This document shows, one piece after another, positions 10,946-59,960 of a DNA stretch of 64,000 nucleotides. The stretch is from Chloroflexota bacterium. Lineage in GTDB: Bacteria; Chloroflexota; Dehalococcoidia; GIF9; UBA5629. Under the pieces are notes generated by a model that had not been told where the DNA came from, searched no databases, and saw only the letters and a list, made by a program, of their open reading frames with translations. Position numbers and translations under genes: made by a program. The stretch's first letter is position 1; the number at the start of each line of letters is the position of its first letter. The stretch is taken from assembly GCA_016875925.1 (NCBI GenBank), contig VGOO01000002.1:4431-68430 (forward strand), written 5' to 3'.

Positions 10946-11065
10946 CCGCGCCTGAGTTGACAGGCACTCGTGCCCCGCTTAGAATGTCATCTTGATTGGC
11001 CTATCCACAAGAGTGAAGTGCAGCATTGTCGGAGAACCCCACTTTCAATCGATAGGAGGGAAATT

Positions 11066-13366: not shown

Positions 13367-13489
13367 GGCTACCCTCCTTATGCGCCAGTTTAGGGTTGTT
13401 TCTGAGTGTATTGTATCACTCCGTATAATCGGGCGCACCCTTCGCTTTGTTCAAGGGCAGGCTCTGGAGGTACGCATAGGAGATAAACC

Positions 13490-13535
13490 GGTCCTTCCGC
13501 CGAAGTACTGGCGGGTTTGAAAACCCGCCCTAAGT
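13490..13535 (+). repeat. Hairpin repeat family A, copy 4 (compensated stem)
   Basis: ggtccttccgccgaagtactggcgggtttgaaaacccgccctaagtg. The stem is ggcgggt/acccgcc instead of ggtgggt/acccacc. Confidence 0.7.
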
Positions 13536-13597
13536 GACTGTATCGCGTCCAGAAAGGCAAGCTCCTCAGCTTTTAGCAAAGATACAGTATCTCCTTT

Positions 13598-27381: not shown

Positions 27382-29340
27382 CTAGAGAGACCTGATGAGT
27401 TCTTCTATTGCTGCCAGATTTGGGAAACTGCCTTGCTTGGTCTCTCTGATAATGCCCTCTCGGTCTATGAAGAATGTTCTCGGTATGCTGCTAACATCAT
27501 ACCTGCTGCCCACGGCGCCCTCTATATCGAGCAGTATAGTGAAAGTAAAGCGCTCGCCGGCGAGGAAATTTCTCACTGTACTGATGTTTTCCTCGAGGTT
27601 GACTGCCAGCACGACCAGTTCATCTTCCTTCCATGTCCTGGTGATATCCTGGAAATAGGGCATTTCGCCAACACACGGGCTGCACCAGGTAGCCCAGAAG
27701 TTTAGCACCACCTTCTTGCCTCGCAAGCTCTTCAGGCTTATCTCCTCGCCGTTGATGGTTTTAAGGGTGAAATCCGGGGCGCGATTGCCTATTTTGGGGC
27801 CGACGGGCAGAGATGCCTGAGTCCTTAATGTATTGTCCAGTGATGTGGCTTCATTCCCGCTGGCATCTGTGGATTTGACCTTGAAATGATAAAGCGTGTT
27901 CGGCTCCAGACCGGTTAGGATTACGCTGTGGCTAGTGGTCATTTGGTTGTCCAGTGGTGAGGTTTTTCCATAGGTCTCGCTGAGGCCGTATTCTACCTGG
28001 CTAGTAGCTGGCTCGTTGGTAGCCCAGGTGATGGTGACGCTGGTTTCTTCTATCTTGGAAGCGCTCACTTCCGTAAGGATGGGTGGAGTGGTATCGGACT
28101 GCGCTAGCGTGGTGAGTTCTTTTTCCAGCGAGGCTTCTTTGCCATTGGCGTCTTTGGATAGGAGAGTAAGGTGATAAGTGGTACTGGCCTTCAGGTTGTG
28201 TAAGGGTACCCAGTGTTTGGTAACTAACGGTGCCTGGAGCTCAGTCCAGGTGCAAAAGCCGCTGGGGTCGCAGACTATTACCTGGGCGCTGGTGGGTTTG
28301 TCTGTTTCCCAGGTAACGATGGCGCCTGTGTCAGTGATGGAGGATAGCTGGACATTCTTGATTGTTGCGGGCTTTTCTCCAAATGACAACCGCGGGGTGG
28401 ATATGTTCTGTGGAAGGGATATAGCCGGTTTCCAGACCTGGGTGATGATGTAGTATCCGGTGATAAACAGCGTGACGGAAATCAAAAGGGCGAGGAGGGT
28501 TCTGAGCATACCGCCTGTTCTAGGCGCCGGAATAGCATACCCTCTGGCTGCCAGCGACCGGGAATCCCCTTGGAACGCTCTTGATGGCACGGGGTAGTTC
28601 ACGGCTGCCGGCGCGGCGATAGCTGTTCCCATAGCTGGTGCTAGTGGTTGTTGAGCAGATACTCGAGGAGTTGCTGGAGACTGGCTATAGCTGTCGGGCT
28701 TGTTTACAGCATGCGGGATTGGAACAGGAACGGATTGCACTGCGTAGCCCTGTTGTGCTCTGGCGCCGGTAATATATCCTCCGGAATAGGACTGTTGTAT
28801 TGTTCCTAGCACAGCTTGGGGTCTTGGCACCTGTGGTTGTGCTGATGTTGGTGTTGGTGGTGTCATCGGCCTGTATGGGGATGCTTGCGGTGTCATTTGG
28901 TGTGGCATCTGTGGAGTTTGTGGTGGTCCTTCGTGTGGCATGCTTCTGCCTATGAGCAGACCACAGCTAAAGCACTGGGTATTGGCGGCACTTAAACTGG
29001 CACTGCATCTGGGGCAATTACGGTGGGTTGCAGATGTGCGGCTTGGAGTGAGCTGGGGTGTTGCTGGTTGTGGTCTGGATGGTGGTTGATATTGTGGTTG
29101 GGGGGTGTACGGCCTAGGTGGGACAGGAGGCATTTGTGGCTGTTGAACTGCTGTGTATTGCTGGGCTGCCCGAGCCCAGGTATTGCTGCCGCAGAGGAAA
29201 CCGCATGTGGGGCAGAATCTGGATTTGTCAGGAAGGATGGCATGACAACGAGTACACCACCGGGTGCCGCATCTCCAGCAAATTCGCTGCCCCGGGGGGT
29301 TCTGTGCCTGGCACCTGGGACATAAAACTATGTTCTGCAC
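27382..29340 (-). CDS. Zinc-ribbon (x3) / P,Q-rich / TM / 2 FN3-like / TlpA-like thioredoxin (WCSPC) protein
   Basis: CPRCQAQNPPGQRICWRCG, CTRCHAI..CPTCG, CPRCSAS..CFSCG. TM LLALLISVTLFITGYYII. VTITWATNEPATSQVEYG. GNRAPDFTLKT..LNFWATWCSPCVGEMP. Confidence 0.85.
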   Translation of the reverse strand: MQNIVLCPRCQAQNPPGQRICWRCGTRWCTRCHAILPDKSRFCPTCGFLCGSNTWARAAQQYTAVQQPQMPPVPPRPYTPQPQYQPPSRPQPATPQLTPSRTSATHRNCPRCSASLSAANTQCFSCGLLIGRSMPHEGPPQTPQMPHQMTPQASPYRPMTPPTPTSAQPQVPRPQAVLGTIQQSYSGGYITGARAQQGYAVQSVPVPIPHAVNKPDSYSQSPATPRVSAQQPLAPAMGTAIAAPAAVNYPVPSRAFQGDSRSLAARGYAIPAPRTGGMLRTLLALLISVTLFITGYYIITQVWKPAISLPQNISTPRLSFGEKPATIKNVQLSSITDTGAIVTWETDKPTSAQVIVCDPSGFCTWTELQAPLVTKHWVPLHNLKASTTYHLTLLSKDANGKEASLEKELTTLAQSDTTPPILTEVSASKIEETSVTITWATNEPATSQVEYGLSETYGKTSPLDNQMTTSHSVILTGLEPNTLYHFKVKSTDASGNEATSLDNTLRTQASLPVGPKIGNRAPDFTLKTINGEEISLKSLRGKKVVLNFWATWCSPCVGEMPYFQDITRTWKEDELVVLAVNLEENISTVRNFLAGERFTFTILLDIEGAVGSRYDVSSIPRTFFIDREGIIRETKQGSFPNLAAIEELIRSL

Positions 29341-43872: not shown

Positions 43873-45222
43873 CTAAGGCTGCGCCGGGAGGCGATTCTTG
43901 CTGTGAAAATAATCTATGGCTTCAGCTACAACGAACAAGGAGCCCGTGACCAGGATAAGGTCGGCTTTGTCTGACCTGGAAAGGGATTGGGATAGGGCTT
44001 TGTTGACGGTTCTGGCCGTGTTTGGATTTACACCTTGTTTGGTGAATTCTTGTACCACCAATGCGGATACAGCAGCCCGTGGGTGGGTGGAAGTGGTAAC
44101 GGTTACGTGGTCGGCTATGCGCTTTAGCTCTGAGACCATCCCTTGAGTGTCCTTATCGCAAGATGTGCCGAAGACAACGTGGCATTTCCCAAAGCTAAAG
44201 CAGTCTTTTATAGCTTCTGCTAGCCTTTTCATAGAGTGAGCGTTGTGGGCTCCGTCTACCACCACAGTTGGCTCATGTTGCAGGATTTGCAGCCTGCCTG
44301 GCCAGCTTACCTGTCTAAAACCTTTAGTGATGGCTACGGCTGGGATGCTCATTCCTAGCTCGCAGAGCGCCTCAAGAGCAGCTACGGCTGTAGCTGCATT
44401 TTCCATCTGGTGTGCGCCTATTAGAGGAATGGTCAGTTCATATTTCCCATTTCTGCCAAAAACCGTTAGCGATTGGCATTTCAAGTTGCATCCCGTGCTA
44501 TTCCAGGTTACGTCTTTGCCTACTTGAATCAGTTTTGCCCTTTGCTGTCGGCAGGTTCGCTTGATTATTTTGGCTGCCTCTTCAGTTTGAGGTGAGCTGA
44601 CAACAATGCAGCCGGACTTGATGATGCCTGCTTTCTCAGCTGCTATCTGGGCTATGGTGTTTCCTAGGACCTCAGTATGGTCCAGGCTAAGTGAGGTGAT
44701 GATACAGACATCACCCTTTGCCACGTTGGTGGCATCCAGGCGTCCTCCCAAGCCGACCTCTAGCACCTGGAAGTCAACGCGGTTTTTCTTGAAATAGGCA
44801 AAGACCAGTGCGGTCAGAATTTCGAAAGTGGTCAATTGGCCGAAGGCGGCCTCGTGATTTATCCTGTCAACTATCGGCTGAAGCTCTGTGGTGAAGGCGG
44901 CGAAGTCTGCCTCGGATATCAAGCGGCTATTTATTCTGACGCGTTCTCTAATGGTATGGAGATGGGGCGAGGTGAATAATCCTGTCTTGTAGCCTGAAGC
45001 TATGAGTGCCTGGGCAACCATGGCTGCGGTGCTGCCTTTTCCTTTGGTACCGGCGATGTGAACGGTTTTTGTCCCCAGGTGGGGGTTGCCTAAAGGTTGT
45101 AGTAGCTTTTCCATTCGCCGCAGGTCATAGTTGGCTGCAGTGTAGGCGATACCTGGAATCTTCTCGTAGTCGGTGAAGCTCAGGATGTAGTCTTGGGCCT
45201 GGCGGTAATTCATTTGAGTCAC
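43873..45222 (-). CDS. folC: Folylpolyglutamate synthase / dihydrofolate synthase
   Basis: HIAGTKGKGST (Mur-ligase P-loop), ..LEVGLGGRLDATN.., and DGAHN. Confidence 0.9.
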   Translation of the reverse strand: MTQMNYRQAQDYILSFTDYEKIPGIAYTAANYDLRRMEKLLQPLGNPHLGTKTVHIAGTKGKGSTAAMVAQALIASGYKTGLFTSPHLHTIRERVRINSRLISEADFAAFTTELQPIVDRINHEAAFGQLTTFEILTALVFAYFKKNRVDFQVLEVGLGGRLDATNVAKGDVCIITSLSLDHTEVLGNTIAQIAAEKAGIIKSGCIVVSSPQTEEAAKIIKRTCRQQRAKLIQVGKDVTWNSTGCNLKCQSLTVFGRNGKYELTIPLIGAHQMENAATAVAALEALCELGMSIPAVAITKGFRQVSWPGRLQILQHEPTVVVDGAHNAHSMKRLAEAIKDCFSFGKCHVVFGTSCDKDTQGMVSELKRIADHVTVTTSTHPRAAVSALVVQEFTKQGVNPNTARTVNKALSQSLSRSDKADLILVTGSLFVVAEAIDYFHSKNRLPAQP

Positions 45223-46627: not shown

Positions 46628-47818
46628 ATGAAAGCGGTACAACGCTATAAAATACTGTATGACATAGCGCAGAAGCTGAACTCCGATTTGGCATCGGAAG
46701 CAGTGCTACATACCATCGTGGAGAATATGTGCGCTGCAGCAGGAGCTAAGGGCTGTTCTTTGATGTTGATGGCGCCTGATCGGCAGCAGTTGATTCATAC
46801 CGTGGCCCACGGGCTGAGCGACTGGTACGTTCGTAAGGGGCCGGTCAGGGTGGATGACGCTATTGCACAGTCACTTGCTGGCAAGCCTGTGGCTATTCTT
46901 GACGCAACCACAGACCCTCGTGTTCAGTACCGGGAGCAAGCGAAGAAGGAAGGTATAGTGTCAATACTCTCCTTGCCTTTGATGCGACGCGGTAAGGTAA
47001 TTGGGCTGGTGCGTATCTATACTGCGGAGCCGCGTAGATTTACTGCTGGTGACGTGGAGTTTTTCAGTGCTTTAGCTGACCTGGGTGCTGTGGCGTTAGA
47101 GAGGGTTGAATTGTTGGAGGATGAAAAGAAGCAGTTTCTTCGCTTTGTCAGTACGGCTGCTCATGACCTTAAAGCCCCTCTTGCCGCCATACAGAGTTTT
47201 CTGGGAGTAATGCTTGCTGGCTATGCGGGAGAGCTGAACGAGAAACAGAAGCATATGATGCAGAGGGCTAGCCAGAGAATTGCGGAGTTGCTTAACCTTA
47301 TCAGTAATCTCCTGGATATTCCACGCATTGAGATGGGGCAGATAGTCCACGAGATGACCGAAGTCTCGCTGGCACAGGTGATTGAGAGTTTTGCCGAGGA
47401 AGCTTCCAGCCTGGCGAAACAGAAAGGACTACTGTTTTCTTTGCAGGTTTCCCCAGACTTGCCCTGTGTGTACGGTTCTCAACCCAGGCTGCAGCAGGTT
47501 GTAACCAACCTAGTTAACAATGCCGTTAACTACACCGCCGAAGGCGAAGTGGAGATAAGGGCGATGGCTATTGACAGTGAAGTGCTGGTGGAAGTTGTTG
47601 ATACAGGCTGTGGCATTCCACAAGATGACTTGCCCAAGGTGTTTCAGGATTTCTTCCGTGGCAGCAACGTAGAATACAAAGGGACAGGTCTGGGACTTTC
47701 TATCTGCCGAAGAATTGTGGAGGCGCACGGTGGCAGGATATGGGCAGAGAGCCCTTGCCTGGAGACAGGCAAAGGCAGTAAATTTTGCTTTACTATTCCC
47801 AGGAAGGTGAAGGTATAG
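46628..47818 (+). CDS. GAF-domain sensor histidine kinase
   Basis: GAF-like N-terminal half. H-box FVSTAAHDLKAPL. N/G boxes LVNNAVNYT and DTGCGIP..GTGLGLSI. Confidence 0.9.
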   Translation: MKAVQRYKILYDIAQKLNSDLASEAVLHTIVENMCAAAGAKGCSLMLMAPDRQQLIHTVAHGLSDWYVRKGPVRVDDAIAQSLAGKPVAILDATTDPRVQYREQAKKEGIVSILSLPLMRRGKVIGLVRIYTAEPRRFTAGDVEFFSALADLGAVALERVELLEDEKKQFLRFVSTAAHDLKAPLAAIQSFLGVMLAGYAGELNEKQKHMMQRASQRIAELLNLISNLLDIPRIEMGQIVHEMTEVSLAQVIESFAEEASSLAKQKGLLFSLQVSPDLPCVYGSQPRLQQVVTNLVNNAVNYTAEGEVEIRAMAIDSEVLVEVVDTGCGIPQDDLPKVFQDFFRGSNVEYKGTGLGLSICRRIVEAHGGRIWAESPCLETGKGSKFCFTIPRKVKV

Positions 47819-47899
47819 GTGTAGCATCATAAAGGCTGTGTATTGTTTTTCAAAATAGTATTTGGATGTCTGATATAATCTTGTTAGGTAGCAACGGAA

Positions 47900-48304
47900 A
47901 TGGGTACAAAGAAGATATTAGTAGCCGATGACGACCCTGATATCCTTGATGTGGTCGGCATGATACTCGAAACTCAAGGGTATACGGTTATACTTGCTCA
48001 TGGTGGGGTGGAGTGTCTGGATAAGCTCCGCGCTGAGAAGCCAGACCTGATGATACTCGACCTTCTTATGCCCAAGATGGATGGCTTTGCGGTGTACAAA
48101 GAGCTTCAATTGCCTTCTTGGTCCGAGTATCGGGGCGTGCCTATCATCATACTGAGTTCGGTGCGCGAAGAAGCCAGTCGCCGTCGTTACGAGTTGGAAA
48201 CAGGCAGAAAACTCAGTCCCGACGAGTATCTGGAGAAGCCGGTTATGCCGGATGTCTTGCTCAGCAGGGTAGAGAAGGTACTTGAGCGCAAGCAACAGGT
48301 TTAA
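47900..48304 (+). CDS. Stand-alone response-regulator receiver protein
   Basis: KILVADDDPD..PDLMILDLLMPKMDG..EKP. No output domain. Confidence 0.9.
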   Translation: MGTKKILVADDDPDILDVVGMILETQGYTVILAHGGVECLDKLRAEKPDLMILDLLMPKMDGFAVYKELQLPSWSEYRGVPIIILSSVREEASRRRYELETGRKLSPDEYLEKPVMPDVLLSRVEKVLERKQQV

Positions 48305-48331
48305 GAGAAAAGATATCGAGGAGGTGATGAA

Positions 48332-48721
48332 ATGACACAGAAGGCCAAGGTGCTACTTGTCGATGACGATAAAGACTTCGTCGAGGCGACCAAGATGGTT
48401 TTGGAGAGCAAGCCTTATGAAGTCCTTGTTGCCTATAATGGTGACGAGGGCCTAGTGAAGGCGCGGAAAGAGAAACCCGACCTGATTATTCTAGACATTA
48501 TCATGCCGGTCAAGGACGGCTTCACTGCCGCTGAGCAGTTTAAGAAAGACCCGGAGCTTAAGAAGATACCTATCATAATGCTGACCAGTTTTGCTCAAAA
48601 GGTTGGCGAAACTTCTCTTAGCATGAGCCAAGGCCTGACGCTGGATACTGAGGACTATGTAGATAAGCCGGTATCACCGGAGGAGTTGCTGAAAAGGGTA
48701 GAGAGACTGCTAAAAAAATAG
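48332..48721 (+). CDS. Stand-alone response-regulator receiver protein
   Basis: KVLLVDDDKD..PDLIILDIIMPVKDG..DKP. No output domain. Confidence 0.9.
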   Translation: MTQKAKVLLVDDDKDFVEATKMVLESKPYEVLVAYNGDEGLVKARKEKPDLIILDIIMPVKDGFTAAEQFKKDPELKKIPIIMLTSFAQKVGETSLSMSQGLTLDTEDYVDKPVSPEELLKRVERLLKK

Positions 48722-48728
48722 CCTTGGC

Positions 48729-49265
48729 CTAGCGGTGGGTTTCTCTTGTTTTGTCCTCATTAGCGAACCGGCGGCGAAGGTCCCTGAATCTGGCACCGAT
48801 TACGCGTACCAGTCCTTTCATGACCTCGTAGCCAATGGCCGGATTGCAATCGAGCAGTCCGACTAGCTCTGTGCCAGACACGATTAGCACGGTTGATGGT
48901 TTGATGCATAATGCGGACATGGTCAGAGAGTGTGGGGCTACTAAGGAGGACCAGCCAAAAATGTCTCCGGTGGTGACGGTATCCACCGGCACGTCTTTTA
49001 TGCTATCCGGGGGATCATCTGTCTGGATAGTTACCAGGAGACTTATTTCACCCTCTTCGAGGACATAAAAGCAATTAGCTGTGGCGTCCTGGCGGAAAAC
49101 GTAATCACCTGGTTTGTAGGTATTTCTTTGCCATGAAGACAAGCTGGCTATTTTTTGTACGTCACTATCGTCAAGGCCTACGAAGACCTCACATCTTTTT
49201 AAGACAGGGGCAACGTTTATCATGTTATGGCTATGGTATGGCTCTAAAAAGGATGATTGATTCAT
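48729..49265 (-). CDS. Cyclic-nucleotide-binding domain protein
   Basis: YKPGDYVFRQDATANCFYVLEEGEISL..GDIFGWSSLV has the cNMP beta-roll pattern. Confidence 0.75.
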   Translation of the reverse strand: MNQSSFLEPYHSHNMINVAPVLKRCEVFVGLDDSDVQKIASLSSWQRNTYKPGDYVFRQDATANCFYVLEEGEISLLVTIQTDDPPDSIKDVPVDTVTTGDIFGWSSLVAPHSLTMSALCIKPSTVLIVSGTELVGLLDCNPAIGYEVMKGLVRVIGARFRDLRRRFANEDKTRETHR

Positions 49266-49339
49266 TATACCCAGACCTGGCTATGGGGTAAAGCTGACTT
49301 GGTGCGAAGAGGTGCGAGAGATTGGGCGTGGAGAGACCT

Positions 49340-49368
49340 TTGACAGGTGATAAATGTTGTAGTAAACT
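49340..49368 (+). promoter_or_regulatory. Candidate sigma-70-type promoter (TTGACA-17 nt-TAAACT) upstream of the fdhA-like operon
   Basis: ttgaca at 49340-49345, a 17-nt spacer, taaact at 49363-49368, about 170 nt upstream of the TTG start at 49539. Confidence 0.4.
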
Positions 49369-49538
49369 GTGTGGTCAATTGGGAGGTAGAGGCAGCAACC
49401 ACTACAAAAACATCTCTATTTCTTCCTTGAGGGTGCTGTTGTAAATCCTTCTTTGTTTTGCGTTTAGCACGTAATAGCACTGTGGTGGGGGTGATATCAG
49501 GAGGCCGAACGGAAAATCGTTAATGTGGGAGGGCGGAA

Positions 49539-52157
49539 TTGGAGACTGTTACCATCACCCTTAATGGGCGAGAGGTAAGTGGTCAACAGGGAATGACTAT
49601 CCTGGACCTGGCCAAGGAATCTGGCCTGGTTATTCCTACGTTGTGCCATGACCCAAATCTTGCCTCCTACGGCGCCTGTCGTATTTGCATTGTGGAAGAT
49701 GAACGTTCAGGCGCTTTGATGGCATCCTGTGTTACGCCGATAGCCCCCGGGATGGTAATCAATACCCAGTCTCCGCGGGTGCTGGAACGCCGTGCTATCC
49801 TCGTTGAGCTCATGCTGGCCAGTCATCCTGACTCCTGTCTGGTATGCGATAAAGGCAACCGTTGCCAACTGCGCAATATAGCCTCTGGCCTCGGTGTAGG
49901 GCTAGTCAGGCTGCAGAGGATTCCCCAATTTGCCAGCATTGAAGAAGTCAATCCTTTCATCGAAAGGGATTTAAGCAAGTGTATCCTCTGTGCCAAGTGT
50001 ATACGTGCCTGTGAAGACCTGGTATGTGAGGGAGCTCTAGACTATCTCGGTCGTGGCTTTGCCTCAAAACCTGCTACATTAGGCGACCAGCCATTAGAAA
50101 AGTCCGAGTGCACTTTCTGTGGCACGTGTGTGGCGATGTGTCCCACCGGCGCTATTATGGAGAAGGAGAAGAGCTACAGGGGCACCAGTGCCACACGGGT
50201 GCGTACGGTCTGTCCTGCTTGTAGCTGTGGTTGTGGGATCTCTTTTGATGTGAATGGTGAGCGTCTGGTGCGTGCTGTGCCTGATGAAGATAGCCCCATA
50301 AATAAAGGCACGCTTTGTATCAGAGGAAGCTATGGCTATGATTTCGTTCATAGTCCGGAGAGGCTGACCACTCCACTGGTTAAAGTCAACGGTAACTTTG
50401 AGGTTGTATCATGGGAAGAGGCTTTGAGGCTGGTGGCGGATGGGTTCAAGCGAATTAAAGAGACCGGCGGCCCCGGTAGCCTGGCGGTTTTCGGCTCTTC
50501 TAAGTGTACTAATGAGGATAATTATTTATTGCAGCGGTTTGCCCGCTGCGTGCTGGGGACAAACAATATAGACAACGGTAGCCGACTGGATGGGTTTACC
50601 AGCTTTGTTGGCAGCACCAAGCCGATTGGTGATATAGAAGAGTCACAGGTCATCCTGGTCATCGGGACTGACCCCGCTTCTTCAGCCCCTTTGGTAGGCT
50701 ATGCCATAAGGCGCGCTGTTAGACAAAAAGGCGCCAGGTTGCTTGTTGTAGGCCCTTGCCAGACAGTGCTTAATTCCTGGGCACATCTGCGGCTGCAACC
50801 TAGGGCTGGCACTGATGTGGCTCTGGTAAACGGAATGGTCAAGACCATCATCGAAGAGAAGCTGTTTGACAAAGATAGCGTAATAAAGCGAGTGGACAAT
50901 TTCGAGGCATTGGCCAAGGCGTTACAGGATTTCACTGCGGAGAATACTGAAGATGTTACGGGTGTAAGTTGGGGCGATATAGTCCAGGCTGCAAAAATAT
51001 TTGCTGGAGCTAGAAAGGCATCTATTGTATATGACAATGGGATTGGTCAGCAGGGCAATGTGATGGCTGCCTTGACAAATTTAGCCTTGTTGACAGATAT
51101 GGGTGATGGTGCTCGATGCTTATATATGCTTCGGCGAGATAGCAATGGGCAAGGCGCTTGTGATATGGGGAGTCTGCCCGATTGTCTTCCTGGCTATCAG
51201 TCCTTGACAGATGCCATGATAAGGGAAAAGTTCGAAGCTCGCTGGGGATGCCGGCTGCCGACCGAAGCTGGCCTGGCTGCTTTTGAAATGGTTAAGGCGG
51301 CAGAGGCGGGCAGCATCAGGGGCATGTATATAGTTGGAGAGAACCCGGCAGTTAGCTTCCCCAATTCTGATGTGGTAAGACAGGCGCTTGAATCGTTAGA
51401 TTTCCTGGTGGTACAGGATATGTTCCTAACCAAGACTGCCAAGTTGGCAAAAGTAGTTCTGCCTGCAGCTAGCTTTGTTGAAAAAGAGGGGACATTTACC
51501 AACTTTGAGGGCAGAGTGCAGCGGCTCAGAAAAGCCTTTAACCCATTAGGTGATAGTTTGCCAGACTGGGAGATCGTACTTCGGCTGGCTAATAAAATGG
51601 ACTATCCCATGGCTTATCTTGCTCCTAAGGAGGTCATGGATGAGATAGCGGAGTTGGTTCCTTTGTATAGTGGCGTGAGCTATACAAGGCTCGATGTTAA
51701 AGGCCCGCGGGATGTGCGTGTCAATTACAGGCAGTCTGAACATAAGCAGTTTTTGTTGTTAGAGCAAGTTCCACAGCCTATCGAGTCAGGCGATGTTTTT
51801 CCCTTCACGCTTTTAGTGGGAAACGTGCTTTACCAGTTTGGAACAGGCACCCGAAGCTCCAGGTCGGCTCGATTGAAGAAATTCGTGCCTGAGGCGTTTG
51901 TGGAGATTAATCCGGCTGATGCCAGGAAACTAAAGGTCAAAGATGGCAATAAGGTCAGAGTGTCGTCTCTCGTAGGTCAAGTGACTGTAGCAGCCAGAAT
52001 AACAGAGTCGGTGGGCAAGGGTAGTTTGTTCATGCCAGCTTCTTGGCCGGAGTCTCCCGTATTTGGTCTATTCGATTTTGTTACAGACAACCAAACAAGG
52101 ACTTTGGCTGTGAAGTCATGTTCAGTGAAACTAGAGAGGGTAAGTGCTGATGGCTAA
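49539..52157 (+). CDS. NuoG/FdhA-like Fe-S molybdopterin-oxidoreductase-fold subunit lacking the formate-dehydrogenase catalytic Sec/Cys-His
   Basis: 2Fe-2S N-terminus (CHDPNLASYGACRIC). 4Fe-4S motifs CILCAKCIRAC and CTFCGTCVAMCP. MopB cluster CPACSCGC..LCIRG. The active-site region reads GTNNIDNGSRLDGFTSF instead of ..CARxU/CHxPS... TTG start after gggaggg. Confidence 0.85.
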   Translation: METVTITLNGREVSGQQGMTILDLAKESGLVIPTLCHDPNLASYGACRICIVEDERSGALMASCVTPIAPGMVINTQSPRVLERRAILVELMLASHPDSCLVCDKGNRCQLRNIASGLGVGLVRLQRIPQFASIEEVNPFIERDLSKCILCAKCIRACEDLVCEGALDYLGRGFASKPATLGDQPLEKSECTFCGTCVAMCPTGAIMEKEKSYRGTSATRVRTVCPACSCGCGISFDVNGERLVRAVPDEDSPINKGTLCIRGSYGYDFVHSPERLTTPLVKVNGNFEVVSWEEALRLVADGFKRIKETGGPGSLAVFGSSKCTNEDNYLLQRFARCVLGTNNIDNGSRLDGFTSFVGSTKPIGDIEESQVILVIGTDPASSAPLVGYAIRRAVRQKGARLLVVGPCQTVLNSWAHLRLQPRAGTDVALVNGMVKTIIEEKLFDKDSVIKRVDNFEALAKALQDFTAENTEDVTGVSWGDIVQAAKIFAGARKASIVYDNGIGQQGNVMAALTNLALLTDMGDGARCLYMLRRDSNGQGACDMGSLPDCLPGYQSLTDAMIREKFEARWGCRLPTEAGLAAFEMVKAAEAGSIRGMYIVGENPAVSFPNSDVVRQALESLDFLVVQDMFLTKTAKLAKVVLPAASFVEKEGTFTNFEGRVQRLRKAFNPLGDSLPDWEIVLRLANKMDYPMAYLAPKEVMDEIAELVPLYSGVSYTRLDVKGPRDVRVNYRQSEHKQFLLLEQVPQPIESGDVFPFTLLVGNVLYQFGTGTRSSRSARLKKFVPEAFVEINPADARKLKVKDGNKVRVSSLVGQVTVAARITESVGKGSLFMPASWPESPVFGLFDFVTDNQTRTLAVKSCSVKLERVSADG

Positions 52158-52638
52158 GTCGGCAAAGAAACAAGGTGTTGACCTGGGGCGAATAGATGAG
52201 CTGATAAAAGAATGCCTGCGGCAAAAGTGGGCTCTGATTCCTCTGCTTCAGAGGATACAGGGAGAGTTTGGTTATATACCACCAGAGGCTACATTGCGCA
52301 TAGCCAATGCTTTGGGGTTGTATCCTGTGCAGGTGCAGGGTGTGATTTCCTTTTATTCTCAGCTCTATACAAAACCACAGGGAAGGAACGTGGTCAGAGT
52401 GTGTCGGGGTACTGCCTGTCATGTGCGTGGAGGCAAGACTATCCTTAAGCTGGTGAAGCAGTATCTGGGGATTGAGGAGGGAGAAACCACGCCTGATTAT
52501 GAATATACACTGGAGACGGTCGCCTGCATTGGCGTGTGTGCTCTGGCGCCGAATCTGGTTATCGGTACCACCACCTATGGGCATGTGAATCCCAGGAAAG
52601 TGGCTCAGATATTTGAGGGTAGGAAGGGTGGGGAATAG
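52144..52638 (+). CDS. NuoE/HydC-like 2Fe-2S thioredoxin-fold subunit
   Basis: LIPLLQRIQGEFGYIP.., VRVCRGTACHVRGG and ETVACIGVCALAP. It overlaps the upstream stop. Confidence 0.9.
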   Translation: MLMAKSAKKQGVDLGRIDELIKECLRQKWALIPLLQRIQGEFGYIPPEATLRIANALGLYPVQVQGVISFYSQLYTKPQGRNVVRVCRGTACHVRGGKTILKLVKQYLGIEEGETTPDYEYTLETVACIGVCALAPNLVIGTTTYGHVNPRKVAQIFEGRKGGE

Positions 52639-52639
52639 C

Positions 52640-55600
52640 ATGGCAACTCACAGAACTGTTTTTGTTTGCCAGGGCACGGGCTGTGTTTCTGGTGGTGGCG
52701 ATGCCGTCTACGAGGCGCTTAAAGCTGAGGTTGAACGTCATAAAGTGGCGGGAGTGGAAGTTGATTTCACTGGTTGCCACGGCTTCTGTGAACAAGGACC
52801 CAATGTAGTTATTGAACCTGAAGGCATCTTCTATACACGCGTGCAACCAGAAGACGCCGCGGAAATCGTCGCATCCCACTTTCGTGATAATAAACCCGTG
52901 GAGCGCCTCTTCTATTGTGATCCTGTCACAGGGCAAAGGATACCTTACTATGCAGAGATAAATTTCTATAAGAAGCAACAGCGCGTCATCCTACGCAACT
53001 GTGGGCGCATTAATCCAGAGAAGATAGACCATTACATTGAAGCTGGTGGTTATAGGGCGTTGCGGAAGGTGCTGTTGATGAAACCTGAAGAAGTAATTGA
53101 GGAAATCAAAAAGTCGGGGCTGCGGGGCAGGGGAGGTGCTGGCTTCCCCACTGGGCGAAAGTGGGAATTCTGCAGAGCTAGTCCTGGGTCAATTAAATAT
53201 GTCATCTGTAATGCAGATGAAGGTGACCCGGGCGCCTTTATGGACCGCTCCATCCTGGAGGCAGACCCTCATGCTGTTATCGAAGGTCTGGCTATTGCCG
53301 GATATGCAATAGGTGCCAGAGAAGGTTATATATATGTGCGTGCCGAATATCCGCTGGCGGTGAAGCGTTTCCGCATTGCGCTAGAGCAAGCGCAGCAGAG
53401 GGGCTTTTTGGGCATCGGTATCCTTGGCTCGAACTTTAGTTTTGTCATCCACGTTAAGGAGGGCGCTGGTGCTTTTGTCTGCGGCGAAGAAACGGCACTA
53501 ATTGCTTCTATTGAGAGCAAACGTGGTATGCCACGTCCCCGTCCACCCTTCCCGGCGCAATCCGGACTGGATGGCAAGCCCAGCAATATCAACAATGTGA
53601 AGACGTTGGCCTCAGTGTCTGTGATTATAGATAAGGGAGCAGAATGGTTCGCCAGTTTAGGTACGGAGAAAAGCAAGGGGACTGCAGTCTTTGCTCTGAC
53701 TGGCAAGATAGCCAATAGTGGCCTGGTGGAAGTGCCAATGGGCACGCCTTTGTCTACGGTTATCTTCGACATCGGAGGCGGAATCCCTCGTGGCAAGCGC
53801 TTCAAAGCGGTGCAGACTGGTGGTCCTTCGGGCGGTTGTATTTCCACCAGATTTATTGATACGCCAGTGGACTACGACTCGCTGGCTCAGCTTGGCTCAA
53901 TAATGGGCTCTGGTGGCATGGTAGTTATGGATGAGGCCACCTGTATGGTGGAGGTTGCCAGATATTTTCTGAGTTTCACCCAAGATGAATCATGTGGCAA
54001 GTGTGTACCCTGTAGACTGGGAACCAGGCAAATGCTGGAGATATTGACCAGGATTACGCAGGGTAAAGGACAAGATAGCGATATAGCAACATTGCTTAGT
54101 ATTGCCAAGACAGTGAAGGAAAGCTCGCTGTGTGGCTTGGGGCAGACCTGTCCTAACCCGGTGCTGACCACCATAAACTATTTTCGTGACGAATACGAAA
54201 CCCACATAAAAGAAAAGAGGTGTCCGGCTGCTGTCTGCGATTCTCTGATGATATCGCCCTGTCAGCATACCTGTCCAGTGGGCATCAATATTCCCAAATA
54301 TGTTGCTCATATTGCTAGTGGCGAACCCCTGGAGTCTGTGGAAACCATCCGGGAGAGGAACCCATTCCCGGCTATATGCGGTCGTATCTGCCATCATCCC
54401 TGCGAGGGCAGATGTCGTCGTGGTGAGCTGGATGAACCGGTGGCCATCAGGTCACTAAAGCGCTTTGCTTCCGATTGGTATTTCGATAACATTTCTAAGT
54501 TGCCTCCGCCCGAACCATTTCCCAGGACTAGACCTCAAAAGGTGGCAGTCATAGGGGCAGGGCCGACGGGACTCAGTTGTGCCTATTATCTTGCCCAGAT
54601 GGGATATGGTGTTACCGTCTTCGAGGCCTTGCCGGTAGGCGGTGGAATGCTTTCTGTGGCTATTCCTGATTTCCGGTTGCCTCGTAAAGTTATCGAACAG
54701 GAGATAGAGTACATCGCCAGGCGTGGTGTTGACATAAGATATAATACTCCTATAGGTGCTAATCTTACCGTCGATGATTTGAAGAAAGATGGCTTTGCTG
54801 CCGTGTTTGTAGCTGCTGGTGCTCAGCGCAGCCAGCGCGTGGGAATACCTGGTGAGCTGGAAGATGTGGAGGGTTTTCACTATGGGCTGCGATTCCTGCG
54901 AGATGTGAAGGTAGGTAAGCAGGTTAGGGTCGGGAAGAAGGTGGCTGTCATCGGTGGTGGCAATGTGGCGTTAGATGCAGCGCGAACCTCGCTGCGGCTT
55001 GGTGCAGATGAGGTTAGCATTTTTTACAGGAGGTCTCGTGAGGAAATGCCAGTGACAGAGGTGGAATATGAGGAGGCGGTGACCGAGGGAATACAAATCA
55101 GTTTCCTGGTCAGCCCAACTCGCATCGTTAATGATAACTGGAAAGTTACTGGCTTACAGTGTATCCGCATGCAGTTGGGAGAGATGGACGCCAGCGGTCG
55201 ACGCCGGCCACTGCCAATTCCTGGGTCCGAGTTCTTTGCGGAGGCGGACACAGTAATAGCCGCTGTTGGCCAAGCGCCTGACCTATCTTTTTTGCCTCCC
55301 GATAGTGCTTTGGAGCGGACCAGGTGGGAGACTCTGGCGGTTGATAGCAATACACTGGCTACCAATGTCCCTGGTGTCTTTGCCGGTGGAGATTTTGTGA
55401 CTGGTCCTGGTATGGTGATAGAGGCTATTGCTGCTGGCAGGAGGGGGGCGCTGGCTATAGATAAATACCTCAAGGCCGATACGTCAAGGGTGGAGATGTA
55501 TGACATGAAGACGGAGGTTATCCTGGAAGCTGCTACTAAGCCTGAAGAGGAGGCGTGGGAGTCACAAAAGAGGTTGGAGGTGCCCAGGTTGCCTACAGAG

Positions 55601-55699
55601 GAAAGGAAGAGCGGCTTTGAAGAAATAGAGCTCAGTTTCTCGGAGGAGATAGCTGTGCAAGAGGCCAAGCGATGCCTCAGGTGTGACCTGGAGAGATGA
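52640..55699 (+). CDS. Fusion protein: 2Fe-2S domain + NuoF/HydB-like (FMN, NAD(H), 4Fe-4S) + GltD/NfnB-like FAD/NAD(P)H oxidoreductase
   Basis: CQGTGC..GCHGFC. GLRGRGGAGFPTGRKW. NADEGDPGAFMDR. SCGKCVPCR. CGLGQ. Then ICGRICHHPCEGRCRRG, VAVIGAGPTGLSCAYYL and VAVIGGGNVALDAART. ATG 52640 is 1 nt after the nuoE-like stop. Confidence 0.9.
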   Translation: MATHRTVFVCQGTGCVSGGGDAVYEALKAEVERHKVAGVEVDFTGCHGFCEQGPNVVIEPEGIFYTRVQPEDAAEIVASHFRDNKPVERLFYCDPVTGQRIPYYAEINFYKKQQRVILRNCGRINPEKIDHYIEAGGYRALRKVLLMKPEEVIEEIKKSGLRGRGGAGFPTGRKWEFCRASPGSIKYVICNADEGDPGAFMDRSILEADPHAVIEGLAIAGYAIGAREGYIYVRAEYPLAVKRFRIALEQAQQRGFLGIGILGSNFSFVIHVKEGAGAFVCGEETALIASIESKRGMPRPRPPFPAQSGLDGKPSNINNVKTLASVSVIIDKGAEWFASLGTEKSKGTAVFALTGKIANSGLVEVPMGTPLSTVIFDIGGGIPRGKRFKAVQTGGPSGGCISTRFIDTPVDYDSLAQLGSIMGSGGMVVMDEATCMVEVARYFLSFTQDESCGKCVPCRLGTRQMLEILTRITQGKGQDSDIATLLSIAKTVKESSLCGLGQTCPNPVLTTINYFRDEYETHIKEKRCPAAVCDSLMISPCQHTCPVGINIPKYVAHIASGEPLESVETIRERNPFPAICGRICHHPCEGRCRRGELDEPVAIRSLKRFASDWYFDNISKLPPPEPFPRTRPQKVAVIGAGPTGLSCAYYLAQMGYGVTVFEALPVGGGMLSVAIPDFRLPRKVIEQEIEYIARRGVDIRYNTPIGANLTVDDLKKDGFAAVFVAAGAQRSQRVGIPGELEDVEGFHYGLRFLRDVKVGKQVRVGKKVAVIGGGNVALDAARTSLRLGADEVSIFYRRSREEMPVTEVEYEEAVTEGIQISFLVSPTRIVNDNWKVTGLQCIRMQLGEMDASGRRRPLPIPGSEFFAEADTVIAAVGQAPDLSFLPPDSALERTRWETLAVDSNTLATNVPGVFAGGDFVTGPGMVIEAIAAGRRGALAIDKYLKADTSRVEMYDMKTEVILEAATKPEEEAWESQKRLEVPRLPTEERKSGFEEIELSFSEEIAVQEAKRCLRCDLER

Positions 55700-55738
55700 T
55701 GGGCTTTGCTTTGAGGCGAAGCGGTGCTTTAGGAGAGT

Positions 55739-56389
55739 GTGACTATGAAATCTATAACTAAACAAAAACCGTTTGAGGAGACCAAGGGACAACTGGATGG
55801 ACTGGATAGGGTTTTTATTATAGGCTGTGGCACCTGCACTACCATGACCAAGACTGGTGGTCGGGACGAAGTGCTGGCTATGAAAGAAAAGCTGCAAGAG
55901 CTAGGCAAGATAGTTACCGGTTGGACGGTTATTCCCACTGCTTGTGACGAGATGACTGAGGTTGCCGTTAAGGAGAATAACGAAGCTATTGGCAATTCTG
56001 GCTGCCTGCTGGTGATGTCCTGTGCATTAGGGGTGCACAAGGTAAGTTCGTATCTTGACAAACCGGTAATACCCGGGGTGGATACGCTATTCATTGGCCT
56101 GGAAGATGAACCGGGAAATTTCCACGAGGTCTGTGCCCAGTGTGGCCAGTGCGTTTTGGGAGAGACAGCGGGAATTTGCCCTATAACCGCCTGTCACAAA
56201 GGTTTGGTTAATGGCCCCTGTGGAGGCACCAATAGGGGCAAGTGTGAGGTGGACAAGGAAAAGGATTGCGCCTGGACTTTGATATATCAGCGGCTAAATG
56301 CGCAGGGTCGGCTTGAACTGATGCGTAAACAGCAGCCGCCGAAGAATTTCCAAGCGGCACCCAGACCGCGGACGGTCAAGATTGTCTGA
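55739..56389 (+). CDS. metV: MetV (methylene-THF reductase C-terminal-domain-type Cys-rich subunit)
   Basis: IIGCGTCTT.., CAQCGQCVLGETAGICPITACHKGLVNGPCGGTNRGKCEVDKEKDCAW. GTG 55739 or ATG 55745. Confidence 0.85.
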   Translation: MTMKSITKQKPFEETKGQLDGLDRVFIIGCGTCTTMTKTGGRDEVLAMKEKLQELGKIVTGWTVIPTACDEMTEVAVKENNEAIGNSGCLLVMSCALGVHKVSSYLDKPVIPGVDTLFIGLEDEPGNFHEVCAQCGQCVLGETAGICPITACHKGLVNGPCGGTNRGKCEVDKEKDCAWTLIYQRLNAQGRLELMRKQQPPKNFQAAPRPRTVKIV

Positions 56390-56396
56390 GTGAGGG

Positions 56397-57287
56397 ATGG
56401 CTATGGTGACTAAATTTAAGGAAGCGCTTAATTCTGGGAAGTTTGTGGTAACCAGCGAGATTGGGCCGCCCAAAGGCACAAACATTGAAAACATGTTGCA
56501 TCATATTGACCTGCTTAAGGACAAGGTAGATGCCATGAATGTTACTGACCATCAAAGCTCGGTGATGCGGTTTCCGTCTATCGGCGGTTGCCTATCTGTC
56601 AGGGAACGTGGCGGCGAACCTATATTGCAGATGACCTGCCGCGACCGTAATCGTTTGGCTCTTCAAGCTGAGCTTCTTTTTGCCTATACCAGGGGTGTCC
56701 GAAATGTGCTCTGCCTGACTGGAGACGCTGTGCCTGTCGGCGACCATAAGGAAGCTAAAGGCGTTTTTGACCTTGATTCATCTCAGTTGCTGAGGGCTAT
56801 ACGTCAACTTGAATCGGGTAAAGATTTGGGAGGTAATGACCTGGACGGCGCTGTCGAGTTCTGCGCTGGCGCCATAGTGACGCCGGAGGCCAATCCCATA
56901 GAACCTCAGTTGATCAAATTTGAGAAGAAGGTGGAAGCCGGAGCCGAGTTTTTTCAGACGCAGGCTATTTACGACCTGGATAATTTCGCCAAATTTATGA
57001 AGTATGCTCGGAAATTCCCGGTGAAGATACTGGCTGGAATAGTGCTGTTGACCTCAGCGAGGATGGCCAAGTATATGACAGACAATGTCCCTGGCATTTT
57101 TGTGCCGCAAAACTTGATTGATGAGCTGGCAGCAGCACCTAAGGGTGAGGCGCTGAAGAAGGGCATTGAGATCGCCGGCAGGATGATTGCGGCGTTGAAG
57201 AAAGACTCTGTTTGCGATGGTGTCCATGTCATGGCCATAGGTAAGGAAGAGGTGGTTCCTGAGATTTTGGCTGAGGCTGGGCTATGA
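56397..57287 (+). CDS. metF: Methylenetetrahydrofolate reductase
   Basis: FVVTSEIGPPKG, NVTDHQSS, LQMTCRDRNR, LCLTGD and FQTQAIYD. Confidence 0.9.
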   Translation: MAMVTKFKEALNSGKFVVTSEIGPPKGTNIENMLHHIDLLKDKVDAMNVTDHQSSVMRFPSIGGCLSVRERGGEPILQMTCRDRNRLALQAELLFAYTRGVRNVLCLTGDAVPVGDHKEAKGVFDLDSSQLLRAIRQLESGKDLGGNDLDGAVEFCAGAIVTPEANPIEPQLIKFEKKVEAGAEFFQTQAIYDLDNFAKFMKYARKFPVKILAGIVLLTSARMAKYMTDNVPGIFVPQNLIDELAAAPKGEALKKGIEIAGRMIAALKKDSVCDGVHVMAIGKEEVVPEILAEAGL

Positions 57288-58184: not shown

Positions 58185-59960
58185 TTAGGGCACCAGTGTT
58201 TTGCCCTTGCTGTTGCGGAACAGGAAATCTAATAGGGGCTTAAAGACCAGGTTTTCACGGTGTCCGGGACGGTCTACGGCAGCACAGGCTATGTCGAGAT
58301 GGTTATAGCCCGGAGCCATAATGGTCACAAATTCGGTGGAGGCGATGCTGCTCTTGTATTCGTCCCAGCCGGAAATATGGGGAACATCGCCATGTGGTGC
58401 GCCGAAGGCAATTACGGGCACGTCTACCTTGGGGTTATGGAAAAAGGTCAACCCAACGTCTTTATTGAATGGTGTCCCAGCAGCTCCGATGTCCAACCTA
58501 AGACGCGATGGGAAATACCATTCGGTGTAGTTGGACGGGCCACGGTAGAGCACGCGGGCGAAGTCCTGGATGTCGGTCATTTCTTCGATTATGGTAGTGT
58601 AGATGACCTTGCCGTTTGTGCTGCGATAGTCAGGGTCATTAGCGTTGCCTATTTCATCGAAATTCACCCAGGAGTAGAGAGGGCCTTTTCCTAGTTCATT
58701 TCGCGGGCCAGCATCCCAGGGGATGAACAGGTTATCGAGGTCTATTCCGCGTATACCTAACAGCTTGGACAGCGAGCCGGGGAAGCTCTTCTTGACCACG
58801 GGGCCACCCTGAAGGAATCCCATGCTAACTTGTAGCATCTTGACCGGCTGGAAGTTGTCATCCATGAATACCCCCAGCAATGCCTCGTTGGTGTATCTGA
58901 AATCGGAGACTGCAGGCTTGCCGGATATGAAGTGAATCAAATCCCTGGAATGGAGTAGCTGTAGTAGCGCAGCCACCTCTTGAGAATAGGGGACATTTTT
59001 GAACAAGGTGGATTCTTCGTCTGGATGGGCAGCCGCCGACATGGCCATTATCTCCAGCAAAGCCATGGCTTCAGGGGAAACGCCCTGGAAGAAATCGAGC
59101 CGTGGTGCTATGCCGGCACGGATATCCTGTAGTCGCTGATTGTAGTCTTCTTGGCTGATGTTGCTAAAGCCTTTGATGTCCCAGTAGAATACGGGACCAT
59201 CCAGCAGAACTAAGCCGGCGCAGTTACGGTATCCGGCGTCTTCGAGTGTGTTTGGGTTTCCATCAAAGTCCCAGCCGGCGAATAGTGCTGTGAGTGGAGT
59301 GCCCAGGGAATGCCCACCGATGAACACTGTCTTCCGGCGCTCCCCCGGGTCTGGTATTTTGCTGGTGATAATCTGGTAAATATCCTCCATGGCTAGCTTC
59401 AGGCCGAACTCAGAAAGATAAGGAACGTCTTGCTCCTTGAGGAAGCCCTGGAATGTCTTGTCTTTGATGGTGCTGCCTCGATAGTAGTAGTCAATGGCTA
59501 TCTTTGGGTCAGGGAGTTCACCGGATTCTTCGGCGGCGTTCATGCCGGTGAGGTCCTCCAGGCAGTTTGGCCTGCGGTCGATAGCCCAAACCTCAAGACT
59601 TTCCTTGCCTTGGGCTTCTGACATGGAGACCAGTTGCCTGCCCATATACTCGAACTCGTTGGCGCCGCCCATGTAACCCGGCATCAGCACTAGGATGGCA
59701 TTTACTTCCTTGGGCTTGCCGTCAGACGTGGCTGGCCTGTATCTAATAAAGTGGATGTAATCGCAGGAGTCGGGTGGCACACCGTTATCTCTGGGTGCAG
59801 GGGAATAGATTGTCTCCTCTTCTACGATTACCTTCTGTGGGATGGATTGTCGTGCTGCCGGGGATTTGGGGTTCTCTGGTACTGGCCCCCCAGGGCTGTA
59901 GCAGCCGCTAAGTAGAATTAGACAGGCTAGAACGAGCCATAGGATGTGCGTTTTATTCAT
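58185..59960 (-). CDS. Large alpha/beta-hydrolase-like lipoprotein (lipase/esterase nucleophile motif)
   Basis: Lipobox LILLSGC. GxSxG motif FIGGHSLGTP. 591 aa. Confidence 0.65.
   Translation of the reverse strand: MNKTHILWLVLACLILLSGCYSPGGPVPENPKSPAARQSIPQKVIVEEETIYSPAPRDNGVPPDSCDYIHFIRYRPATSDGKPKEVNAILVLMPGYMGGANEFEYMGRQLVSMSEAQGKESLEVWAIDRRPNCLEDLTGMNAAEESGELPDPKIAIDYYYRGSTIKDKTFQGFLKEQDVPYLSEFGLKLAMEDIYQIITSKIPDPGERRKTVFIGGHSLGTPLTALFAGWDFDGNPNTLEDAGYRNCAGLVLLDGPVFYWDIKGFSNISQEDYNQRLQDIRAGIAPRLDFFQGVSPEAMALLEIMAMSAAAHPDEESTLFKNVPYSQEVAALLQLLHSRDLIHFISGKPAVSDFRYTNEALLGVFMDDNFQPVKMLQVSMGFLQGGPVVKKSFPGSLSKLLGIRGIDLDNLFIPWDAGPRNELGKGPLYSWVNFDEIGNANDPDYRSTNGKVIYTTIIEEMTDIQDFARVLYRGPSNYTEWYFPSRLRLDIGAAGTPFNKDVGLTFFHNPKVDVPVIAFGAPHGDVPHISGWDEYKSSIASTEFVTIMAPGYNHLDIACAAVDRPGHRENLVFKPLLDFLFRNSKGKTLVP

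Follow-up and report, generated by a model that had tools for sequence, protein, structure and literature searches.

Energetic coupling at the reduction of methylene-tetrahydrofolate (methylene-THF) or the oxidation of methyl-THF (E0′ about −200 mV) is a long-standing gap in the understanding of acetogens, syntrophic acetate oxidizers and completely oxidizing sulfate reducers, and to our knowledge no methylene-THF reductase (MTHFR) has yet been shown to bifurcate electrons. The closest described arrangement is a 'NuoEFG homolog + metFV' in Desulfobacterales and Chloroflexi, listed as an unstudied, possibly bifurcating 'X type' of MTHFR, whose MetFV proteins form a separate phylogenetic group and whose representative, Dethiosulfatarculus sandiegensis, is in culture (Yi et al. 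2021, Microbiol Spectr, PMC8515935). That the X type is one enzyme with electron-bifurcating activity is those authors' own speculation (PMC8515935), and no later characterization was found in the literature searched, though further papers may exist. Here we analyse a five-gene cluster in a 64,000-nucleotide (nt) stretch of a Chloroflexota genome (Dehalococcoidia; GIF9; UBA5629; assembly GCA_016875925.1, contig VGOO01000002.1, positions 4,431–68,430 of the forward strand), referred to below as the window, with position 1 as its first letter. The cluster places a NuoE/F/G-homolog module directly 5′ of metFV, as described for Chloroflexi and Desulfobacterales, and belongs to the X type, a known kind of MTHFR. 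The initial annotation of the window had presented it as novel; that claim falls, since the arrangement was named, and the same bifurcation idea put forward, in 2021. The cluster is a real and strongly conserved unit, and its five genes may encode one X-type MetFV complex in which MetVF docks and methylene-/methyl-THF acts as the third substrate, a reading drawn from the sequences to which we assign a probability of about 0.5.

Conservation and cofactor modules of the cluster

Five plus-strand open reading frames (ORFs) at 49539–57287 encode a formate dehydrogenase (FDH)-like protein termed FdhA-like, a NuoE-like protein, a NuoF-GltD fusion, MetV and MetF, as judged from the ORF list, Pfam and NCBIfam, and the co-directional, close-packed layout and domain content proposed in the initial annotation hold (Table 1). 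The identical five genes are found in independent Joint Genome Institute (JGI) gene calls on a metagenome contig (3300020074, Ga0194113_10001483), located through an exact-sequence match of the fusion. Ribosome-binding site spacing and the JGI calls give the likeliest starts as ATG 52150 for the NuoE-like gene, ATG 52640 for the fusion, ATG 55745 for metV (with AGGAG as ribosome-binding site 8 nt upstream) and ATG 56403 for metF. The junctions, first put at −14, +1, +39 and +7 nt, become −8, +1, +45 and +13 nt with these starts; the tight packing and translational coupling stand, and the NuoE-like gene shares its first 8 nt with the end of the FdhA-like gene. The first gene starts with TTG, which is kept in six related loci (L004, L007-L010, L035).

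One genome per species in GTDB was scanned with the fusion, yielding 451 stretches that encode a relative, and the best 80 loci were studied by tblastn (related loci bear L numbers below) with the five window proteins, with synteny counted only where contigs were long enough. These relatives are metagenome-assembled genomes (MAGs), and the best 80 loci are nearly all from Dehalococcoidia or Dehalococcoidales MAGs of lakes, aquifers, sediments and peat. The predicted conservation of synteny is found: metV-metF lies directly 3′ of the fusion in most loci testable downstream (54/58), and the FdhA-like and NuoE genes lie directly 5′ of it in most loci testable upstream (57/60), with median gaps of 51 nt between fusion and metV and 13 nt between metV and metF. 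Identities across loci are 78–93% for MetF, the most conserved protein of the cluster, 69–97% for the fusion, 64–83% for MetV, 62–81% for NuoE and 47–68% for FdhA-like. Each of two protein searches listed at least 120 near-full-length fusions at 77–100% identity. The five-gene cluster is also present in Desulfobacterota, in Desulfatiglans (LR026961.1) and in a second, 7.4-Mb genome, where metV overlaps the fusion stop codon. These Desulfobacterota clusters carry an extra MetF paralog (L082:5307-6185, L084:5850-6725), 29% identical to the cluster MetF and absent from the window, flanked by a response-regulator gene (HTH_17 + Response_reg) on one side and the gene for the degenerate FdhA-like protein on the other.

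The NuoE-like protein has a 2Fe-2S_thioredx domain (PF01257, 1.9e-45; NF005722 NuoE, 148.7 bits against a cutoff of 141), and all 66 orthologs compared share its C85, C90, C126 and C130. The fusion contains Complex1_51K and NADH_4Fe-4S followed by Fer4_20 and Pyr_redox_2, and divides into a NuoF/HydB/BfuB-like half (residues 1–537) and a GltD module binding NADP(H) and flavin adenine dinucleotide (FAD; residues 538–1019). Residues 6–537 are highly identical to B subunits of bifurcating enzymes with solved structures, namely A. mobile NiFe-HydB (7t2r_B, 2e-234), HydB 7q4v_B, NfnB (9bov_B, 9n5u_B) and Stn (8oh5_B), the Stn/NfnABC match reaching 5e-206. In the A. mobile enzyme the B2 cluster is ligated by C438, C476 or Thr, H525, C531 and C536, and the B2 His is missing from non-bifurcating homologs (Schut et al. 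2022). The counterparts in the fusion are C435, T473, H522, C528 and C533, and these residues, together with the B1 Cys (C452/455/458/498) and the N-terminal [2Fe-2S] Cys (C10/15/46/50), are 91–100% conserved in 68 orthologs. The full Bfu core is present, comprising the NADH and flavin mononucleotide (FMN) site, B1, B2 with its His and the N-terminal [2Fe-2S] cluster of BfuB and the C1 [2Fe-2S] cluster of BfuC.

The second half of the fusion departs from the BfuB plan. The HydB-type alignment stops at 'HIKEKRCPAAVCDSLM' (residue about 537) and the Fer4_20 of GltD starts from residue 539; no CxxCxxCxxxCP motif occurs anywhere in the fusion, so that the C-terminal 2x[4Fe-4S] ferredoxin-like domain of BfuB (B3/B4) is lacking and the GltD module stands in its place. 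Residues 539–1016 align over their whole length with the GltD module inserted in NfnA (9bov_A 102–567; 1e-125, 424 bits), the NADPH motif GGGNVALDAAR...YRRSREEMP is that of NfnA, and the module is of the NfnA/StnC type. Eight GltD cluster Cys are fully conserved, the last two, C1012 and C1015, in a terminal permuted 'EA-RCLxC'. GltD is not found in the BfuA (NuoG-like) subunit here: no such module separates the [2Fe-2S] domain of the FdhA-like protein from its His-cluster domain. The ratio of non-synonymous to synonymous substitution rates (dN/dS) of the fusion is 0.04–0.10. A NuoF-GltD fusion with two nicotinamide sites, as initially proposed, is thus borne out by domains, Protein Data Bank (PDB) alignments and the NADPH motif. 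Its topology would extend the Bfu family; it is not present in the main text of the 2022 Bfu survey, which makes no mention of MetF, methylene-THF or GltD.

The FdhA-like protein contains Fer2_4, NADH-G_4Fe-4S_3, two Fer4, Molybdop_Fe4S4, Molybdopterin and Molydop_binding domains (Pfam, NCBIfam), and scores 592.8 bits with TIGR01591, under the cutoff of 666. Its motifs predict an N-terminal [2Fe-2S] cluster, a His-ligated [4Fe-4S] cluster, two [4Fe-4S] clusters and the [4Fe-4S] cluster of a complete molybdopterin-type domain. It aligns end to end with true FDHs (8rqz_C, Bacillus subtilis YjgC, 4e-164; 6tg9_A, Rhodobacter capsulatus-type FdsA, 6e-153) and matches 9wxb_B over its full length (E about 1e-153), and these full-length alignments identify the FDH fold and Fe-S chain of an NAD-linked FdhA. 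The catalytic set of FDH, a selenocysteine (Sec) or Cys ligand followed by His plus an active-site Arg, is not found in it: the window protein reads 'NNIDNGSRLDGFTS--FVGS' where real FDHs read 'CARVCHSPTGYG' or 'IDHCARLCHAS'. Among 63 orthologs, Tyr occupies the Cys/Sec position in 57, Asn or Ser stands for the next His and Gln for the active-site Arg in 53; no X-type member retains either the Cys/Sec or the His. The window copy retains the Arg and carries an additional 9-residue deletion in the active-site loop that also removes the conserved Tyr, and the Desulfobacterota copies are still more degenerate. Positive controls in the same alignment read Cys-His (L065, L077) and TGA-His (L079). 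The Fe-S Cys and His ligands are 100% conserved in the 63 orthologs except C36 (98%) and C158 (Cys or Asp), the protein is full length in 63 genomes, and pairwise dN/dS is 0.12–0.17 for the whole protein and 0.13–0.17 for the degenerate molybdopterin-like part. Because the Fe-S ligands are near-invariant, dN/dS is low and the catalytic residues are lost, the sequences indicate a subunit that is maintained, though not as a formate dehydrogenase. The catalytic degeneracy initially noted in the window copy, in which the Cys/Sec-His loop is missing, is therefore confirmed.

MetV and MetF form a MetFV-type pair, with a PF12225 MetV (7.9e-36) encoded directly 5′ of a PF02219 MetF (6e-43) across a 13-nt gap. 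An NGPCGG motif and 12 Cys of MetV are conserved in 67 orthologs, and dN/dS of MetF is 0.03–0.12. The PDB contains no MetV homolog, and its MetF matches are single-subunit MTHFRs only.

The four loci that break synteny coincide with the loci in which the FDH site is intact, and they are the most divergent (56–61% fusion identity). L065, L072 and L077 have Cys-His and Arg ('IDHCARLCHAS' and 'PLRGQNNVQG'), and L079, a Ca. Geothermocultor MAG, has an in-frame TGA at 'CARL*HS' that is probably a selenocysteine codon, judged from its position in the motif. Gene order in all four is NuoE-fusion-FdhA. In L079, hdrA-metV-metF-hdrBC-cooC-acsE lies directly upstream of this trio (7447-13709), and in L065 the trio (6379-12738) is preceded by a NiFe hydrogenase, two MetV-like genes, MetF and DUF3786; both contexts are Wood-Ljungdahl-like. 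Loss of FDH chemistry coincides with fixed MetVF linkage, since the synteny exceptions are the intact-FDH loci. The most parsimonious ancestor would be an NAD(P)-linked FDH that included a NuoF-GltD subunit and was encoded near metVF; in the X-type lineage its formate chemistry would then have been lost while its genes became fixed directly 5′ of a metVF without Hdr or hydrogenase partners.

We note two further observations on these relatives. An FDH with both NADH and NADPH modules is predicted in L079 and L065, a type that we did not find described. In L065 (150-6166), genes for NiFe hydrogenase small and large subunits and a HycI protease are followed by the two tandem MetV-like genes, MetF and DUF3786, and a hydrogenase-linked MetVF is possible there; a comparable MetF-NiFe hydrogenase adjacency has been noted for 'Ca. 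S. acetioxidans' (PMC6295475).

Electron flow and competing readings

If the five proteins form one complex, MetF would perform the folate chemistry and MetV would provide the Fe-S entry to MetF, and the FdhA-derived subunit would take the role of BfuA, serving as an electron wire of five clusters and as a docking surface, with no formate turnover. The NuoE-like protein and the NuoF half would form a HydBC/BfuBC-type NADH-FMN 'flavobicluster' core, and the GltD module, at the position of the ferredoxin domain, would be an NADP(H)-FAD port. Electrons would move among NAD(H), NADP(H) and methylene-/methyl-THF. Exergonic electron flow from NADH to methylene-THF would drive an endergonic reaction, the simplest candidate being the reduction of NADP+, with ferredoxin as the alternative acceptor if a site for it has been kept; the direction would be reversed in organisms that operate the pathway oxidatively. 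Such coupling is to be expected because the core has bifurcating-type hallmarks. BfuBC cores normally serve NAD(H) at the FMN, ferredoxin through B3/B4 and, by way of BfuA, a third substrate. Here the FMN site is intact and an NADP(H)-FAD module takes up the ferredoxin port. MetVF is a plausible third port because the wire ends without a catalytic site, although its upkeep by selection suggests that it has a destination, MetV and MetF are the only invariant neighbours, and neither has an NAD(P)H site of its own in any characterized system.

A more specific version of this reading, in which the enzyme is a ferredoxin-independent, three-port bifurcating or confurcating one with NADP(H) on the low-potential branch used elsewhere for ferredoxin, is rather improbable on the sequence evidence. 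It would catalyse 2 NADH + methylene-THF + NADP+ <-> 2 NAD+ + methyl-THF + NADPH, so that the exergonic reduction of the folate would drive the unfavourable transfer of electrons from NADH to NADP+; run backwards, the enzyme would use NADPH to draw forward the oxidation of methyl-THF by NAD+, which is otherwise endergonic, as might apply to Desulfobacterota and Dehalococcoidia with an oxidative Wood-Ljungdahl pathway. Arithmetic from published physiological potentials gives about +4 kJ/mol, near equilibrium, for this reaction, which would therefore be freely reversible. By the same arithmetic co-reduction of ferredoxin at −500 mV is not near equilibrium, and it is because of this difference that the NADP(H) version is put forward.

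Several points weigh against a single five-subunit complex. Gene adjacency by itself is weak evidence, because stnABC of Sporomusa ovata adjoins metVF and yet purifies as a stand-alone transhydrogenase. No MetV-like docking domain, as found in RnfC2, was detected in the three upstream proteins by BLASTP or a MetV profile hidden Markov model. No other Wood-Ljungdahl genes occur within the window, in which the cluster is surrounded by genes for housekeeping, regulation and folate biosynthesis. We infer that the GltD clusters adjoin B2 solely from the 8-residue spacing of C533 and C541. L012:5760-11060 (CP070642.1) encodes NuoE and the fusion without metVF; its flanks are truncated, only the last 272 amino acids (aa) of the FdhA-like protein remain and the final ~40 fusion residues are divergent, and this sole exception within the degenerate-FDH group may reflect either rearrangement or faulty assembly.

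The stand-alone purification of stnABC bears directly on the possibility that the operon encodes two enzymes, a Stn/Nfn-Bfu-type transhydrogenase using NADH, NADPH and possibly ferredoxin and a ferredoxin-dependent two-subunit MetVF, co-expressed so that the transhydrogenase can keep the reductant pools drawn on by the folate pathway in balance. We regard this main rival as less likely than a single complex, though as a serious one. Most cofactor modules of Stn are present (NuoE-like, BfuB-like with B1, B2 and [2Fe-2S], GltD and NuoG/Fdh-like), the S. ovata stnABC genes lie directly 3′ of metVF and their product is an NADH-dependent ferredoxin:NADP+ oxidoreductase, and two-subunit MetFV enzymes that accept electrons from reduced ferredoxin in vitro are known. 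The structure of archaeal NfnABC shows a mid-potential branch along NADPH-FAD-A7-A6-A3-A2-A1-B1-FMN and a low-potential branch along C1-B3/B4-ferredoxin, the B3/B4 domain being where ferredoxin docks (PMC12018979). With GltD on BfuB, the Stn path FAD-A7-A6-A3...B1 is not reproduced, and with the B3/B4 ferredoxin-binding domain missing the trio could not operate as a standard Stn/NfnABC and would require a different third port. A plain assignment of the three upstream genes to Stn was downgraded for the same reason, the replacement of B3/B4 by GltD in the BfuB alignments. Separate enzymes would also leave both nicotinamide sites on one polypeptide and an 872-aa FdhA-like subunit that is superfluous yet conserved under purifying selection, and would not account for a linkage that survives transfer between phyla, with a MetF paralog added in Desulfobacterota.

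A single complex that is a non-bifurcating NAD(P)H:methylene-THF oxidoreductase, without energetic coupling, is quite improbable. The three-subunit enzyme of Acetobacterium woodii, RnfC2-MetVF, is NADH-dependent through RnfC2, and reduction of methylene-THF with NAD(P)H is exergonic (E0′ −200 versus −320 mV). Against such an enzyme, the NuoF half keeps the bifurcating-type B2 His/Cys set and the N-terminal [2Fe-2S] cluster in 68 orthologs, and two nicotinamide sites and about 10 Fe-S clusters would be excessive for a simple reductase. An FdhA-like protein that is still an active molybdo- or tungstoenzyme, with Tyr as an unusual ligand, oxidizing formate or another substrate and passing electrons to MetVF and NAD(P)+, is extremely improbable, and an active FDH with an alternative ligand was rejected as unlikely: a whole molybdenum-bis(pyranopterin guanine dinucleotide)-type fold under purifying selection, Tyr in most orthologs and an ancestral trio that the intact-FDH relatives show to have been a real FDH stand against replacement of Cys/Sec and His throughout the X type, the frequent Arg-to-Gln change, the loop deletion without Tyr in the window copy, the greater degeneracy in Desulfobacterota and the sub-cutoff TIGR01591 score.

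As a single coupled complex, MetVF with a bifurcating-type flavin core and two nicotinamide sites would be a concrete candidate for the missing coupling at methylene-THF. Its predictions are sharpened by the substitution of GltD for the ferredoxin domain and by the catalytically dead FDH that would act as connector. The cluster type is abundant in uncultured Dehalococcoidia and Desulfobacterota, and Desulfatiglans species carry it.

Regulatory neighbourhood and other window genes

A single candidate promoter had been proposed for the cluster (Table 1). Promoter-like sites in the region are at chance level in a consensus scan (10 seen versus 9.6 +/- 3.1 expected), so that the site is not significant by count; its −35 and −10 boxes are kept in six related loci (L004, L007-L010, L035) among which the flanking intergenic DNA varies. 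The same scan found no terminator-like or promoter-like signals within the cluster above the chance number. In the ~170-nt leader (49369-49538), blocks conserved among relatives (L007-L010, L035) are missing from the window copy. A search for a riboswitch or other RNA leader 5′ of the operon gave no Rfam match, at gathering thresholds across the whole window and at permissive thresholds on 49150-49650. The upstream regulatory set (46628-49265) is kept at 45–88% identity in the nearest relatives, and a response-regulator gene lies directly 5′ of the FdhA-like gene in most Dehalococcoidia loci and also in the Desulfobacterota clusters; this neighbourhood is possibly associated with the operon.

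Table 1 Features of the five-gene cluster and its upstream region, in window coordinates
Feature	Position	Strand	Evidence
GAF histidine kinase	46628-47818	+	Pfam
Single-domain response regulator	47900-48304	+	Pfam
Single-domain response regulator	48332-48721	+	Pfam
Cyclic nucleotide monophosphate (cNMP)-binding protein, divergently transcribed	48729-49265	-	Pfam
Promoter-like TTGACA-17 nt-TAAACT, ~170 nt 5′ of the FdhA-like TTG start	49340-49368	+	Consensus scan
FdhA-like/BfuA-like Fe-S subunit, 872 aa, predicted catalytically dead	49539-52157	+	Pfam, NCBIfam, PDB alignment
NuoE/HydC/BfuC-like [2Fe-2S] subunit, 162 aa	52150-52638	+	PF01257, NF005722, JGI gene call
NuoF/HydB/BfuB-like + NfnA/StnC-type GltD fusion, 1019 aa	52640-55699	+	Pfam, PDB matches
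MetV, Fe-S/Zn subunit of MetFV-type MTHFR, 214 aa	55745-56389	+	PF12225
MetF, catalytic flavoprotein of MTHFR, 294 aa	56403-57287	+	PF02219

Folate-related genes elsewhere in the window encode a FolC-like folylpolyglutamate synthase (43873-45222, minus strand), a PabB-like chorismate-binding enzyme (15059-16495, minus strand) and a PabC-like class IV aminotransferase (13598-14482, minus strand); in S. ovata, pabAB likewise adjoins stn and metVF. A gene at 7232-9445 (plus strand) encodes a predicted tungsten-type aldehyde:ferredoxin oxidoreductase (AFOR_N + AFOR_C), a sign that the host has an anaerobic metabolism based on ferredoxin. Tandem paralogs at 25644-27344 and 27382-29340 (both minus strand) have an unusual architecture of fn3 and purple-acid-phosphatase-N domains with a C-terminal AhpC/TSA-redoxin, and the second of them (27382-29340) also has an N-terminal double zinc ribbon. 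A 591-aa ORF at 58185-59960 (minus strand), a called gene in the JGI annotation, has no Pfam family on record.

Comparison with described systems

The MetF-MetV-RnfC2 enzyme of A. woodii resembles the window cluster in combining a MetFV core with an accessory NADH-binding flavoprotein, of RnfC type there and of NuoF type here. RnfC2 has an N-terminal MetV-like domain, which the upstream proteins of the window lack, and is without the NuoE partner, the GltD/NADPH module and the FdhA-like subunit, all three of which the window cluster has. The six-subunit HdrABC-MvhD-MetVF of Moorella thermoacetica and S. ovata likewise joins MetVF to a large flavin/Fe-S module suspected of bifurcation or confurcation, and Moorella HdrA contains a GltD-type NAD(P)H/FAD domain, as the window fusion does; however, Hdr and MvhD genes are absent from the window and from every X-type locus, and the flavin core is of the HydBC/Bfu type rather than the HdrA type. 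In the same bacterial class as the window, the complex iron-sulfur molybdoenzyme (CISM) protein DET0187 of Dehalococcoides is an FDH-type scaffold without FDH activity that is thought to connect redox modules; it is of another lineage (periplasmic FdnG type), with a hydrogenase and a reductive dehalogenase as partners, and serves as an analogy only. By analogy, RnfC2, the GltD domain of Moorella HdrA and the Dehalococcoides FDH-like connector are precedents that make the single complex plausible.

Stn/NfnABC (PDB 8oh5, 9bov, 9n5u) shares most cofactor modules with the window trio, and its NuoG/Fdh-like domain is also without a catalytic site. There, GltD lies inside BfuA and the NuoG-like domain is truncated, whereas in the window GltD lies at the C-terminus of BfuB, replacing B3/B4, the FDH fold is complete and the linkage to metVF is invariant. 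FdsABG (6tg9) and the Fdh-Bfu formate dehydrogenases have a full-length FdhA and NuoE/NuoF-type partners like those of the window, but in the window family the catalytic Cys/Sec and His are lost and NuoF bears an additional GltD module. The X type has the same arrangement and distribution as the window cluster, and its description (PMC8515935) is one paragraph that is silent on the fusion to GltD, the lack of the ferredoxin-like domain and the inactive state of the FDH site. To that description the present comparison of sequences adds a predicted bifurcating-type BfuB, a GltD module that replaces the ferredoxin domain, a catalytically degenerate FdhA with its Fe-S ligands kept, and distant relatives that have an intact FDH site and lie in Wood-Ljungdahl contexts.

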